From: Candidatus Latescibacterota bacterium
GTDB lineage: Bacteria; Latescibacterota; UBA2968
Length of the DNA: 64,000 nucleotides
Reading direction: 5' to 3'
Assembly: GCA_965198115.1 (NCBI GenBank)
Contig: OZ240241.1
Span: 3,680,001 to 3,744,000 of the forward strand
Within the stretch, counting starts at the first letter, position 1. Every line of letters starts with the position of its first letter. The notes beneath the pieces are model-generated. The model saw nothing but the letters and a program-made list of their open reading frames with translations. It had not been told where the DNA came from and ran no database searches. Shown here piece by piece: positions 50,162 through 61,813 of the stretch. The position numbers were made by a program, and so were the translations under genes.

Positions 50162-51559
50162 ATGGTCGCTCCAGCCAAACCCCTTGAATTCCTTGAGAGT
50201 CTCGACAACCTGCCGACCCTCCCCACGGTGGCGGCACGCGTCGCCAATGCGGCCCAGGACGAAACCGCGTCGGTGAAAGAAGTCTCTGATCTGATCGAAA
50301 AGGACTTCGCCCTCTCGGCCAAGATCCTGCAGGTCGTCAACTCTTCGCTCTACGGTTTCAGTCGAGAAATCGACAGCGTCAACGACGCCGTCGGCCTGAT
50401 GGGCTTCAAACAGGTCGGAAACCTGGCTCTGGGCATTTCCGTCGTCAGTGGCTTCCCCCAGCAGAAAGTTTTCGGGTTCAGCTACCACGATTTCTGGCAC
50501 AGATCCGTCAGCAATGCCGTCGCCGCCACCATGACGGCCACCCAGATCGACAACAAAGCGGAGGGACTGTTTACCACCGCACTCCTCCAGGACATAGGAA
50601 CGTGCATTCTCGTCAAGCACCTGCCCCTCGCCTACGGTAATGCGATGGGTATGGCGCACGAACGGGACATTCACCCGATCCACACCGAGCGTGAGGTACT
50701 TGGGGCCGATCACGCCGAAGTCGGAGGCCACCTGGTCAAACACTGGAACCTGCCGTCCAGTATTCAGATGGCGATTCGCCATCACCACTTTACCGAATTC
50801 GGTGACGATCTCGATCCCGACGTAACCAACGGCTACACGGACACGATTCGAATCGTCAACTTCTCGAACCTCCTCACAGACGTTCTGTATGACGAAACGG
50901 AAGACACACGCCGCGTCGAGCGTCTCGATCGAGCGGCCAAGAACCTGAAGCTGGACCAGACGCAGATCGATGAGATGTTCGATCGAATGCCGGAGGAGGT
51001 CCGGAGCGTTCAGTCGCTGTTCCACGCCGAGACGGAGGAAGAGGAGACCGAGTCGGTCGATCAGTTCTACGATGAGTGCCCGAAGTGCGCATCCACCTCT
51101 ATCATCCGTTTCTGCGGGGAATGCGGCACATCACTCCTCAAGACCTCCGGCGGCGGAATCGAGCGCGAAGGCCAAAATCAGAAGATCCTGGTAGCCGAGG
51201 ACAGCGAAGCCATTCGCACCGCCATTGTTTCCCTCCTGCGGAAGCGAGGCTACAACGTCGTGGTCGCGTTCAACGGCGAAGAAGCCGTTCAGTTGACAGG
51301 GAAGGAACAACCGGACCTTGTCCTGATGGACATCCGCATGCCGGTCATGGACGGTCTCGAAGCGCTTCGCCACATTCGTCTCGACGTGCGGTCCCAGGAA
51401 CTGCCTGTCATCATGCTGACGTCAGTCACGAACCTCGACACCGTCACCGACGCCATCAGCCGGGGCGCGACAGACTACGTCGCCAAACCCTTCACGATCG
51501 GGAAACTCCTTGCAACGATCGAGAAGTACATCGTGAAGTCCGAAGAAGAGACCTCCTGA
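50162..51559 (+). CDS. HDOD + double zinc ribbon + receiver domain signalling protein
   Basis: LPTLP...KILQVVNS...FWHRS...LQDIG...DHAEVG...WNLP...HH; CPKC...CGECG; VAEDS...LMDIRMP...KPF. Confidence 0.85.
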   Translation: MVAPAKPLEFLESLDNLPTLPTVAARVANAAQDETASVKEVSDLIEKDFALSAKILQVVNSSLYGFSREIDSVNDAVGLMGFKQVGNLALGISVVSGFPQQKVFGFSYHDFWHRSVSNAVAATMTATQIDNKAEGLFTTALLQDIGTCILVKHLPLAYGNAMGMAHERDIHPIHTEREVLGADHAEVGGHLVKHWNLPSSIQMAIRHHHFTEFGDDLDPDVTNGYTDTIRIVNFSNLLTDVLYDETEDTRRVERLDRAAKNLKLDQTQIDEMFDRMPEEVRSVQSLFHAETEEEETESVDQFYDECPKCASTSIIRFCGECGTSLLKTSGGGIEREGQNQKILVAEDSEAIRTAIVSLLRKRGYNVVVAFNGEEAVQLTGKEQPDLVLMDIRMPVMDGLEALRHIRLDVRSQELPVIMLTSVTNLDTVTDAISRGATDYVAKPFTIGKLLATIEKYIVKSEEETS

Positions 51560-58242: not shown

Positions 58243-59793
58243 CTATCCCCAGGCCGTGTCGAATCTCGATTCGGCCTCTGCCAACACGATGGCGGGAATG
58301 TCCTCGGGCGACTCGACGGGATAGACGACGATGTGTCCGTCTTGCTCAGTCGCACGCCGGAACTGCTCGGCCTCCTGGGTCCTTCCCACGTGAACGGCCG
58401 TCACCCGTCCCTCCACACGGGAAAGGAAATCGGTCACGCTGTTCAGGTTCGAGATCTGCATGTCCGTAATCACGAAATAGTCCGTGTTCGAATTCGTGAG
58501 ACGCGCGAAGTCCGATGTGTCGACCTCGGTTCCACCACCGAAGTAGCGGCACAGACCTCGAAAGACGCGTGTTCGATCGCGCGTATAGTCGACCCATTCC
58601 TTACCGCCCGACGGCGCGTCGCTGAAATTGTAGACAGCCACCCGCCGCCCCCGCTTCAAGTAGGCGTCGGCGGCACAGCCCGCACCTAACACGGCGAACG
58701 ACAGTTCTTCACACGGGTTTGTCATGCTCCCGGAAGAGTCGATGACCAGCACACAATCCGGAGTCCCGGCCTGGCTCCCGTGTGTCTCTCCTTCACGCCG
58801 CTCCCACACCTGGGACACGCCCGGCAAGAACTTGCCGAAGCTCGTCCACACGTCGATGTCCTGAACGGGTCGTCCGACTTCCCAGGGCGTGTGCGCGTGG
58901 GGATACCAACCGCCTACGCGCTCGAGCCGATTCGGTCTGACGGCCAATCTGAACCGTTCACATCGCTTCATATAATAAAGAAGGTCCGCCTGCGTCGGCT
59001 CACCCTTCCCCTGACCGATCCCCTTCTCTGGCATCACGCCCGCATCTTCCAGCACATCCCGAAAATCATCCACCATCGCACGGAACGCGTAGTAGCCTTG
59101 CTCGGCGAATCGTGCGAGAGCCTTTTCGATCTCTTCTGCCGAGTGTTGCGCATCGTGATCGCCCAACATCCCACTCTGGCCGTCCGTGCCTTCTTCTGAT
59201 TCCTCCCGAAGAAAGGGGGTGACCACGTTCGCGAACGTCCGCACGCTCTCCTTCCACTTCGACCGCTCCAAATAGGGAATCCGCGAGAGCCGGGTGACCG
59301 CCGTGTCACGCGCCTCGTCCCGCTCGACGCCGAGATCGACGCCCCAGAGACGCTCGTAGAGTGAACGCATCAACTCGTAGGCGCCCTCACCCGGACGATC
59401 GGAATAGATGTCGGGCAATGCCGACCCGTGTTCGCGAACACAGTGGGTGTCGACGACCGCATCGGTAAAATAATCGAGGACGCGCCGAATCATCGCCCCG
59501 TCCCGGACAACCGGCTTAAGCGATGCATACAGATCGAGATAAGTTTCGTAGTCCCACGGACAGACCGTGTGGTGGGCGATTCCGTGGTCGAGAAGGGCAT
59601 CGACGACCGACTCGGGAGGCACCGTGTCCCCGAACGATTCGACAAAGCCGCTCGACAGGCGAATGTGCTTGGCGCGTACATCCATCGCCACCGACTCGTC
59701 GATGTCGGCCAGCGAAGGATCCGGGAGCTCTGGATACAAGTGTCGGGCCCGGGCCTCCGGCCACGCGGCCTCGAGCAGGTCTTTCCACGCCAT
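58243..59793 (-). CDS. vWA-domain protein with N-terminal zincin-like (HGIAH) region
   Basis: MIDAS DSSGS...GGGTE...ITD; N-terminal LDHGIAHHTVCP. Confidence 0.8.
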   Translation of the reverse strand: MAWKDLLEAAWPEARARHLYPELPDPSLADIDESVAMDVRAKHIRLSSGFVESFGDTVPPESVVDALLDHGIAHHTVCPWDYETYLDLYASLKPVVRDGAMIRRVLDYFTDAVVDTHCVREHGSALPDIYSDRPGEGAYELMRSLYERLWGVDLGVERDEARDTAVTRLSRIPYLERSKWKESVRTFANVVTPFLREESEEGTDGQSGMLGDHDAQHSAEEIEKALARFAEQGYYAFRAMVDDFRDVLEDAGVMPEKGIGQGKGEPTQADLLYYMKRCERFRLAVRPNRLERVGGWYPHAHTPWEVGRPVQDIDVWTSFGKFLPGVSQVWERREGETHGSQAGTPDCVLVIDSSGSMTNPCEELSFAVLGAGCAADAYLKRGRRVAVYNFSDAPSGGKEWVDYTRDRTRVFRGLCRYFGGGTEVDTSDFARLTNSNTDYFVITDMQISNLNSVTDFLSRVEGRVTAVHVGRTQEAEQFRRATEQDGHIVVYPVESPEDIPAIVLAEAESRFDTAWG

Positions 59794-60488
59794 CAGACCG
59801 CCCTCTCCGGGTCGCCGTAGACACATTGTCGTCGATGGTAGACCACGCCGCCGGTCGGCTTGCCAACGCCTCCGAGTCTGCCCTGAACGTGGATTTCGCC
59901 CCCCACCATCTGTTCACCCACGAACCGGCCCGCGTCACCGCCCACGTCGATCCGCCCCGCCACCATACCCGCGCCCAGGTAACGTCCGACGTGCCCGCTC
60001 ACGCTCAGCCCGCCGCCCGTCATTGAAATACCGGTCAGGTCGCCAAGATGGCCGTCGACGCTCAAGGTTCGCCCGTCCTCCAGACGATATCCGAGCAGGG
60101 GTAGCCGGAGGTCCTGTCCCTGAAAGCTGAGCCCGATCTGACGATCTTGTGACGTGTTACAGAGTGCGGAAACGTAAAGACCGAGCGGGCCCATCAGGAA
60201 GAAATCCGGATCCTCACTGCCAAAGGAAGCCAGCGCGAACGCCTCGACGTCGCCCGGAGTCACCTCCAGGTCGGTCACGATCGCGAGGGCTTGTTCGTAG
60301 ACGCGTACGATCGAGTCGCCATCGGGTTGCCAGAGCCCATCGCCGGCCTCGTCCTCGATCAGTCGTTTGAACCCGGCTTTCAGATCGTCCAACACGTGTG
60401 TGTGTGCCGCGAGGATCTCCTCCATGGGCAGTTTTCGTGGCGGGGGCTCCGAGCCCTGCGCTCTGAACTCGCTGAACGGGTTTTTCAC
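59793..60488 (-). CDS. FwdC/GltB-C-like GXGXG beta-helix protein with helical N-terminal domain
   Basis: Repeats such as LSVDGHLGDLTGISMTGG / LSVSGHVGRYLGAGMVAG / IDVGGDAGRFVGEQMVGG. Confidence 0.75.
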   Translation of the reverse strand: MKNPFSEFRAQGSEPPPRKLPMEEILAAHTHVLDDLKAGFKRLIEDEAGDGLWQPDGDSIVRVYEQALAIVTDLEVTPGDVEAFALASFGSEDPDFFLMGPLGLYVSALCNTSQDRQIGLSFQGQDLRLPLLGYRLEDGRTLSVDGHLGDLTGISMTGGGLSVSGHVGRYLGAGMVAGRIDVGGDAGRFVGEQMVGGEIHVQGRLGGVGKPTGGVVYHRRQCVYGDPERAV

Positions 60489-61813
60489 GACCCGACCCGC
60501 GACGGTTCGGCACCGAGATCCTTTTTTATCTCGTGATAGATCGGGTGCTCACCCTCCAAAGGCTCAACGGCCTCACCATCGAACGCCCGACCTCCCACGC
60601 CGAGCGCCTCTTTGATCCGCGCACTCTGCTCCGAATAGCGGCGGACAACCTGTGAGACGGCTTCGCGAGCTCGATGAATCAGGTAGGCGTCACGGCGCTG
60701 TCCGTGCTCGACGTCGGTGTCCCCATCGTCGCGCCATTGGATCCGATGGGCGGATGCGTAGGGAAGAATCAGTCGCAGGTGCTCGACCGTCACGACCGAG
60801 TCTCCGAGCAGCCAGGCCAACGCCTGTGCGTAGCGACGCACCGACACCGGAAAGCGGTTCGACAGGCATCCTTTGACCTGATACCCCAGGTAGCCTGTGT
60901 AGTGGCATCCCTCCCCACAGATTTCGTTCGAACGCTTCTGGCCATACTTGCAGCAGAACGTGAGCTCGGCCAGATAGGTCCTCATCAGTGCACTCGCATC
61001 CGTTTCAAACGACAGACGCAAGAAGGACGCGCGTGCGCGCGCGCGCGCTTCACGACCGAGCGTTGGCACGTTGAGGGATTCTGCCACACGCGCTCCAAAC
61101 CCGTCGCAGAACGTTTGAATGTCACCATCGTCAGCATCGCCTCCAAGCCAGGTCTGGATGGCGTTCTCGCATTCGGCGTCGCGCAGACCCGGCTCGACGC
61201 TCGCGTCCTCGCCGATTGCCCACGACAGATTCGGTCCCGGGTGTTTCGACTCGACCATCACGTCGAACCGATCCATCAGCGGGGGCACGAGTGTGTTCGT
61301 ACCCCGGTCCTGGTAATTGGCCGTCGCGAACAACGCGAACTCATCGTTCACGAGCATCGCGTTCAAATACGTCCAATGACCCCGGTCAACCCCGTTGAGA
61401 ATCAGACTCTGTTTGGTCTCGGGAAGCCGATTGATCTCATCGACGATCTTGACCGGCAGCCGAGCGAAAGCCGACCACACGACCGCCTCGCGCCCCTGGT
61501 TGAGTTCACCGAGGTTGGGACGTCCGACGATCTTCTCCTCGGTCTGCTCGGGATGCCCCGACACTTCGGCTTCCCACACCGTCCCGAGCGGCAATCGGTA
61601 GAGCAGCGCCCCCACGTACTCGGCCGAAGTGGTCTTCCCCAGGCCGGGCTCCCCCACGATCAGCGCCTTGCCTCCAACCAGACCCGTCAACACGCTCAGC
61701 AGGAGTGACGCGTTGAACGATTGCCCCTGTATCTCGACATCGGGTCGGTTATAGTAGAGGTTGTCCTCTATAAAGGAGAGGATGGCCAGCACATCTTTTC
61801 TCACATCGTCCAA
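60485..61813 (-). CDS. MoxR-type AAA+ ATPase with Cys-rich insert
   Basis: GEPGLGKTT, IVDEINR, ATAN, LMDRFD; CCKYG...CGEGCH...C. Confidence 0.85.
   Translation of the reverse strand: MDDVRKDVLAILSFIEDNLYYNRPDVEIQGQSFNASLLLSVLTGLVGGKALIVGEPGLGKTTSAEYVGALLYRLPLGTVWEAEVSGHPEQTEEKIVGRPNLGELNQGREAVVWSAFARLPVKIVDEINRLPETKQSLILNGVDRGHWTYLNAMLVNDEFALFATANYQDRGTNTLVPPLMDRFDVMVESKHPGPNLSWAIGEDASVEPGLRDAECENAIQTWLGGDADDGDIQTFCDGFGARVAESLNVPTLGREARARARASFLRLSFETDASALMRTYLAELTFCCKYGQKRSNEICGEGCHYTGYLGYQVKGCLSNRFPVSVRRYAQALAWLLGDSVVTVEHLRLILPYASAHRIQWRDDGDTDVEHGQRRDAYLIHRAREAVSQVVRRYSEQSARIKEALGVGGRAFDGEAVEPLEGEHPIYHEIKKDLGAEPSRVGS

Follow-up and report, generated by a model that had tools for sequence, protein, structure and literature searches.

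Gene Arrangement at the Locus

The window analyzed here is a stretch of 64,000 nucleotides from a Candidatus Latescibacterota bacterium (contig OZ240241.1, positions 3,680,001 to 3,744,000). Between positions 58243 and 61813 it carries three overlapping open reading frames (ORFs) on the minus strand, which encode an AAA+ ATPase, a β-helix protein and a vWA protein. This trio is a real and conserved variant of the MoxR-vWA machines, with the MoxR-vWA pair as its core. The ATPase gene (61813-60485) specifies 442 residues from a TTG start with GAGGA just upstream, the β-helix gene (60488-59793) 231 residues, and the vWA gene (59793-58243) 516 residues counted from the ATG at 59793. A preliminary description of the locus had the three genes coupled by overlapping stop and start codons, and both overlaps are present as it gave them, GTGA at 60488-60485 and TGATG at 59795-59791. 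The trio sits inside a longer co-oriented run, with a short-chain dehydrogenase gene upstream and genes for YhbY and a pseudouridine synthase downstream. No match to a sigma-70 promoter was found at the trio, and terminator matches occurred only at chance level. No RNA holder of the trio was listed either, which carries no information on its expression. The source genome, a single contig of 8.43 Mb that is 100% complete, holds one copy of each of the three genes.

Conservation and Range in Bacteria

A scan for relatives of the vWA protein, with one genome per species, gave 206 relatives, the best 80 of which were analyzed as loci. The order AAA, β-helix, vWA is found in 68 of these 80 loci, so the arrangement is not due to chance, and the genes do recur together in other genomes. 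Contig ends explain the missing gene in six loci without a β-helix gene and in three without an ATPase; every locus with enough flanking DNA holds the β-helix gene. In 3 of the 80 loci there is no ATPase within 7 kb. Genomes G081, G084 and G091 have an intact ATPase gene 3.0 Mb, 1.0 Mb and ~81 kb away, and there the β-helix gene still adjoins the vWA gene. Three of the 68 ordered loci (L037, L075 and L101) contain a broken gene. In L037 the vWA gene is split by two near-identical inserted ORFs (L037:5050-6938), which look like IS4-family transposases. The idea of a dedicated three-gene module spanning several phyla is thus borne out by the locus scan and by the archaeal relatives described below.

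The locus titles include Latescibacterota, Thermodesulfobacteriota and other deltaproteobacteria, Binatia, and one member of the Spirochaetales; database protein names extend the range to Tectomicrobia and SAR324. Among 168 Latescibacterota genomes, the vWA gene occurs in 37, a long β-helix match in 36, and both in 35, the three mismatched genomes being assemblies of 370-650 contigs. The vWA gene is found in 29 of the 30 genomes of the window's family and in none of 15 from genus g10 of the same order. In the phylum of G181, 50 of the 401 genomes sampled carry the module. It is single-copy in nearly all cases (47 of 48 genomes searched gave a match, 4 a second match). This patchy range, taken together with stability at the level of clades, indicates that the module is stable within clades yet dispensable.

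Flanking genes differ by clade, and no fourth gene at the trio is common to Latescibacterota and other bacteria. Candidates for such a gene, an FKBP isomerase (30 loci), Lon (8 loci), an HD protein and a methyltransferase, proved to be only clade-level neighbors. The FKBP-type isomerase follows the vWA gene in most Latescibacterota loci (L048:8599-9297 and 29 others); it was not found in the window's genome with the query used. In one clade (L077, L084, L085, L092, L105, L107, L112 and L114), the gene immediately downstream of vWA encodes Lon protease.

The ATPase

The ATPase (60485..61813, minus strand) matches Pfam AAA_5 (34.2 bits, cut-off 22) and AAA_lid_2 (23.8 bits, cut-off 22.7), and it falls below the cut-off of AAA_3 (PF07726; 20.8 bits against 27). 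The catalytic motifs ascribed to it in the preliminary description are all there, and none of the 38 rows aligned departs from them: Walker A (GEPGLGKT), Walker B (D125-E126), sensor I (N166), the arginine finger (R182) and sensor II (S318-N319-R320). The sole PDB sequence match of the ATPase profile, among matches at E values up to 0.01, is 2r44 (E 0.0019); in this weak alignment the profile spans both the helix-2 insert and the pre-sensor-1 hairpin of 2r44 without large gaps. Identity to the ordinary MoxRs of the same genomes is ~30% over ~150 residues. In a quick tree that carried a long-branch warning, the ATPases of the three subtypes defined below separate from three ordinary MoxRs (>200 bits) with a support of 96. 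Judged by its motifs, inserts and MIDAS-vWA partner (where MIDAS stands for metal ion-dependent adhesion site), this is a MoxR-clade ATPase, yet one that forms a deep family of its own.

A Cys/His-rich insert in the AAA lid (60866..60955, minus strand; residues 287-316) is a predicted metal site. C287, C299, C303, H304 and C316 are invariant in the 38 rows. Of 63 bacterial loci, 60 have the full pattern of five cysteines plus the histidine; at position 310 the window carries Gly. The lid cysteines are absent from the two archaeal ATPases aligned.

The vWA Protein

This protein (58243..59793, minus strand) was modeled with AlphaFold2 as a zincin-like N-domain, a helical linker, a low-confidence segment (284-342) that is nonetheless conserved, and a C-terminal vWA domain. 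Its reading frames are intact across the loci, 503-628 codons from the first possible start, with a single architecture. The intact MIDAS reported earlier holds up: DSSGS (58726..58740, minus strand; residues 352-356) is invariant, and D352-x-S354-x-S356, T422 and D444 do not change in any of 57 rows and are found in all of 63 loci. The fold of the vWA domain matches that of NorD (VWA domain, Z 13.5) on a level with other vWA domains, the alignment starting at model residue 268. In BFVD the whole protein matches models of phage CobT-like and metallopeptidase-vWA proteins by structure (E 1e-7 to 1e-4).

The zincin-like label given to the N-domain needs qualification. An HxxxH-type motif is present, but it reads HGIAH (59572..59586, minus strand), that is, HExxH with the catalytic Glu replaced by Gly. 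Gly or Ala occupies this site in all 79 of the motifs found in the 80 loci and in 117 of 119 database proteins, the other 2 being unmatched. Despite the loss of the Glu, H70, H74, C78 and D111 are invariant in these proteins. The region around HGIAH models as a small sheet plus helices (strands 27-47, helix 60-76, with the invariant D111), and Pfam peptidase matches are weak (E 0.02-0.4). Among the matches listed by the fold searches, made with the whole model, and by PDB sequence searches, none was to the N-domain, which both barely probe.

The β-Helix Protein

The middle protein (59793..60488, minus strand) is the predicted adaptor. Its AlphaFold2 model, with a predicted local distance difference test score (pLDDT) of 89, begins with a disordered tag, followed by four long helices, some three full coils of β-helix and a capping hairpin. 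The N-terminal tag, M-K-N-P-F-x-E-F (60465..60488, minus strand), is a predicted docking motif; P4, F5 and F8 are invariant in 57 rows despite a pLDDT of ~60 there. It aligns with an archaeal RFxxYKPE tag, and no other protein of the window's genome carries it. In many Latescibacterota β-helix proteins the NPFxEF tag is duplicated (P0023, P0026-P0049; L037:3810-4604). Some proteins of the window's subtype have a leader of ~22 residues although their zincin lacks the Glu, which rules out the idea that a leader goes only with an active peptidase. The β-helix itself (59817..60068, minus strand) comprises three full 19-residue coils and a cap, with coil positions 3, 4, 7 and 8 as the predicted target-binding face. 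The GXGXG repeats noted in the preliminary description are present, but only over residues ~117-204 and with scores below family cut-offs.

The closest folds are FhcC (Z 12.3, root-mean-square deviation 2.9, 135 residues aligned), FwdC (Z 12.1) and GltB (Z 10.4). The middle protein shares the 19-residue right-handed coil with FwdC/FhcC and with the C-terminal domain of GltB (PF01493). Unlike them, it places its roughly three full coils after a tag and a helical domain of 110 residues, and it lacks partner subunits. That it is true FwdC/FhcC, or a glutamate synthase subunit with partners elsewhere, is suggested by the common fold and repeat and by some databases that so name its relatives. The earlier view that it is not FwdC/FhcC has stood: it scores 43.5 bits on TIGR03122 (cut-off 130.65) and 17.9 bits on PF01493 (cut-off 32.5), in the complete genome no FwdA exceeds the cut-off and Ftr has no match (searches that worked in two methanogens used as controls), and FwdC over the cut-off occurs in none of 42 trio genomes. 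The other GXGXG domains of the genome belong to a 1543-codon glutamate synthase frame and to a separate three-gene cluster.

The genome's other small GXGXG protein is encoded by a stand-alone gene for 231 residues at locus L002 (G000:C1:5717070-5720492), which lies between glutamine amidotransferase-like and FMN glutamate-synthase-like genes. This cluster is presumably glxBCD.

Three Subtypes

The AAA tree and the vWA tree give the same three groups, in each of which the three genes are co-inherited. Subtype I, that of the window, has the order AAA, β-helix, vWA, a single β-helix gene and a replaced catalytic Glu. Subtype II is also bacterial and was found as weaker vWA matches in the survey of the phylum of G181; genomes G177, G409 and G436 each combine a strong vWA match with a weak one. 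Its order is AAA, vWA, β-helix, with all three parts in 3 of 5 loci and only the vWA and β-helix genes in the other 2. HExxH is retained in all four complete N-termini, so the notion that all bacterial copies are dead peptidases is wrong. One subtype II operon (L216:2591-5180) adjoins further genes, which look like those for Ku, an ATP-dependent ligase and a MerR-type regulator. Subtype III is archaeal, with HExxH in 5 of 5 proteins whose N-terminus is covered and with β-helix genes in arrays of up to 14 paralogs.

Archaeal Arrays and the Variable Face

Subtype III was reached via a search with the β-helix profile, among whose matches are proteins named Micrarchaeota and Altiarchaeota. The archaeal helical-plus-GXGXG proteins mentioned in the preliminary description are real and share loci with members of the AAA and vWA families of the bacterial trio. 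The bacterial β-helix protein and the archaeal array family match profile to profile over 216 columns (probability 100), and full-length homology is seen for the AAA (29-30% identity) and vWA (25-26%) proteins. At E 1e-30 the β-helix profile matches 540 clusters (50% identity); at E 0.001 it matches 5188, among which true FwdC may be counted.

A metagenome scan with a 16-sequence archaeal-type alignment gave 119 matches, 80 of which were kept; these lie in 68 loci, some of which overlap or duplicate one another. The 68 loci hold 229 β-helix ORFs, and 54 of them have at least two. A member of the AAA or vWA family is present in eight, of which three show the bacterial gene order. Examples of arrays are L186 (AAA, three β-helix genes, vWA, seven β-helix genes) and L143 (AAA, two, vWA, six); L143 also holds an archaeal glutamyl-tRNA synthetase over the cut-off. 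Group II intron reverse transcriptase (RVT_1 plus GIIM) directly follows the array of L186 (L186:11973-13334), and a weak AbiEi-like gene comes after it. In archaeal L136, LonB lies between array genes. Three archaeal-type chains (P0327, P0328 and P0343) contain two whole helical-plus-β-helix units.

Paralogs of one array have a mean identity of 37-58% and 1-11 coil motifs. A quick tree groups them by lineage and unites the 14 bacterial rows (76 trimmed rows, those without the anchor pattern dropped; 40 of 73 branches open). Variation within the arrays is unevenly distributed. In array L125, with 11 of 14 genes scored, the nonsynonymous difference (pN) reaches 0.53 in the loop that separates the tag from the helical core, against 0.16 for the tag and 0.17 for the core. 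At coil positions 3, 4, 7 and 8, identity in eight arrays is 0.02-0.11, which is the level of chance, versus 0.22-0.58 at the other non-anchor coil positions. Y, W, F and H occupy about a fifth of the variable sites. The same positions in bacterial orthologs are conserved, 0.87 versus 0.61 overall in 15 rows and 0.72 versus 0.64 in 42 rows. Diversification of the arrays by a diversity-generating retroelement (DGR) was considered and rejected, there being no codon signature and no NNY bias at variable sites. A receptor or adaptor would be expected to look like this, with a constant docking end joined to a solenoid face that varies; drift of exposed residues is the alternative.

A Proposed ATP-Driven Machine with an Exchangeable Adaptor

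We give an even chance to the reading that the trio is an ATP-driven protein-remodelling machine in which the β-helix protein is an exchangeable adaptor that picks the target. It builds on the co-inheritance in three subtypes, the intact AAA and MIDAS motifs, the conserved tag and the contrast among coil positions. The β-helix protein likely chooses the target, because its archaeal relatives expand the gene into arrays that vary at four positions per coil. By analogy with NorQ/NorD, the ATPase would form a hexamer, segment 284-342 before the vWA domain would serve as a finger in its pore, and ATP turnover would twist the vWA protein; that the NorD finger enters the ATPase pore is stated in PMC13036017 and PMC9976466. 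The adaptor may dock on the vWA protein or on the ring by its tag and helical domain, holding the target on one face of the β-helix. Where HExxH is intact, in subtypes II and III, the target would presumably be cut. In subtype I the machine would not cut its target, because the catalytic Glu is gone; one fixed target would be bound and remodelled, and the Cys/His insert may be a structural or redox metal site. An apparent fusion in SAR324 (P0352), in which the C-terminal half of the AAA protein runs into the β-helix protein, counts in favor of this reading if it is a true fusion.

Several points weigh against the adaptor machine. The fusion comes from one short contig and may be a sequencing error. 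The target has to be inferred, because no target gene is conserved nearby. Only 8 of the 68 archaeal-type loci hold the AAA or vWA family, and in the DNA retrieved for the long arrays L125, L127, L130 and L136 both are absent. Saturation of synonymous sites (synonymous difference, pS, 0.57-0.83) prevented a demonstration of positive selection, and the variable positions may be exposed turn residues drifting in redundant paralogs. In addition, the zincin fold rests on the motif, the topology and the weak Pfam matches.

A broader proposal, possible but held tentatively, is that the module is an ancient ATP-dependent protease or remodeller whose receptors plug in from a repertoire, which would make it a counterpart, among prokaryotes, of F-box adaptor systems. 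DPANN archaea would have dozens of tagged β-helix receptors with hypervariable faces, and a single AAA-vWA-zincin engine would receive from each of them a different protein, be it host, viral or their own; the window's subtype would be a tamed form with one receptor and a dead peptidase. F-box and SOCS-box adaptors and leucine-rich repeat (LRR) receptors combine a constant docking module with a variable solenoid face and are expanded into repertoires. The likeness is an analogy only: there is no homology, and the trio is prokaryotic, with a β-helix rather than LRR or WD40.

Alternative Explanations

The β-helix protein could instead be the client of the machine, recognized by its tag, then unfolded, trimmed, assembled or released, and active elsewhere as a decoy, an immunity protein or an effector. 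A tag that is conserved and poorly ordered is what substrates have, the tags look lineage-specific, and archaeal paralogs carry leaders before the tag and have a vWA protein that keeps HExxH. Trimming of leaders fits poorly with those subtype I proteins in which leaders coexist with a Glu-less zincin. The median peak hydrophobicity of the β-helix proteins is 0.95 (19-residue window), so that a membrane or signal segment is not typical of them, and keeping three genes just to handle one small single-copy client would be the less economical arrangement. The client role is on balance unlikely, and the sequence evidence favors a role as adaptor.

Next comes an immune or conflict system, in which β-helix proteins would sense invader proteins and the AAA-vWA pair and peptidase would set the threshold and respond. 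Such a system may share the adaptor mechanism and differ in its biological role. Hypervariable paralog arrays, lineage-clustered expansions, the patchy range, the split vWA gene of L037, and the precedent of the MoxR-vWA ternary conflict systems of PMC7159879 all point this way. Subtype I does not fit the description: it is single-copy, fixed in its clade, uniform in protein lengths and set among stable housekeeping flanks. PADLOC 2.0 matched none of six proteins at E 0.01, there are no fused effectors and no DGR-like codon signature, and viral contigs gave only four weak P-loop matches (14-17 bits) and no true ATPase relative. The suggestion of a conflict module made in the preliminary description is therefore not supported for subtype I, though it may hold for the archaeal arrays; for the system as a whole we regard it as improbable.

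Slightly more doubtful again is a metal-insertion or repair chaperone of the NorQD/CoxDE kind acting on an unlinked enzyme. In it the metal would be handled by the Cys/His insert and the HxxxH-Cys-Asp site, and the β-helix protein would be a fixed scaffold. The invariance of H70, H74, C78 and D111 in subtype I despite the Glu loss would suit it, as would the widespread AAA cysteine cluster and the place of NorD among the top vWA fold matches. Against this, no enzyme gene is linked in any clade, the cysteines are missing from the two archaeal ATPases, and arrays of 14 variable paralogs are left unexplained. The identification as FwdC/FhcC or a glutamate synthase subunit is, on the scores and genome searches given above, largely refuted and very improbable.

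Relation to Known Systems

The trio resembles NorQ/NorD, CbbQ/CbbO, CoxD/CoxE and RavA/ViaA in having a MoxR-clade AAA+ with helix-2 and pre-sensor-1 inserts, and its vWA protein has the NorD-type layout of N-domain, linker and C-terminal MIDAS vWA. Unlike these pairs, it has an obligate β-helix gene, a zincin-like N-domain, a Cys/His lid insert and no linked client enzyme. A second resemblance is to phage and cellular CobT-like or metallopeptidase-vWA proteins that occur with CobS/MoxR ATPases, which the trio vWA protein matches structurally over its full length, at 8-13% identity and a template modeling (TM) score of at most 0.36. We know of no β-helix partner for such pairs.

Like the ternary conflict systems of PMC7159879, the trio combines a MoxR, a vWA protein and a third conserved part, with a variable component in some lineages. 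The third components given there are VMAP, iSTAND, FtsH and a β-propeller. The helical-plus-β-helix protein is none of these four, and it has no match to the Pfam models of those systems. Variation in the present system sits in arrays of third-gene paralogs, not in effectors fused to the vWA protein, and there is no DGR signature. The trio is not described in the literature searched; the source data of PMC7159879 could list such neighborhoods. MoxR, vWA and GXGXG occur together in none of the top-ranked literature matches, and term searches found no mention of MoxR or formylmethanofuran in PMC12892359, PMC8204110 and bioRxiv 10.64898/2026.10.09.758139. The present analysis adds subtype II with HExxH and the hypervariable coil face of the archaeal arrays.

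MoxR-vWA pairs are common, and their choice of target is known for few. Through its third gene the trio amounts to an experiment set up by nature. Bacteria have a single fixed copy, small archaea have arrays that vary on one face, and the peptidase is intact in two of the subtypes but dead in the other. Target choice by an adaptor is directly testable with three soluble proteins and, if true, would explain the large β-helix family of up to 5188 clusters. Databases label part of this family FwdC or glutamate synthase domain 3, and metabolic reconstructions of DPANN genomes can be led astray by these names.

Elsewhere in the window, a 465-residue protein (50162-51559) reads, by sequence only, as an HDOD domain, a CxxC-CxxC ribbon and a C-terminal receiver domain.

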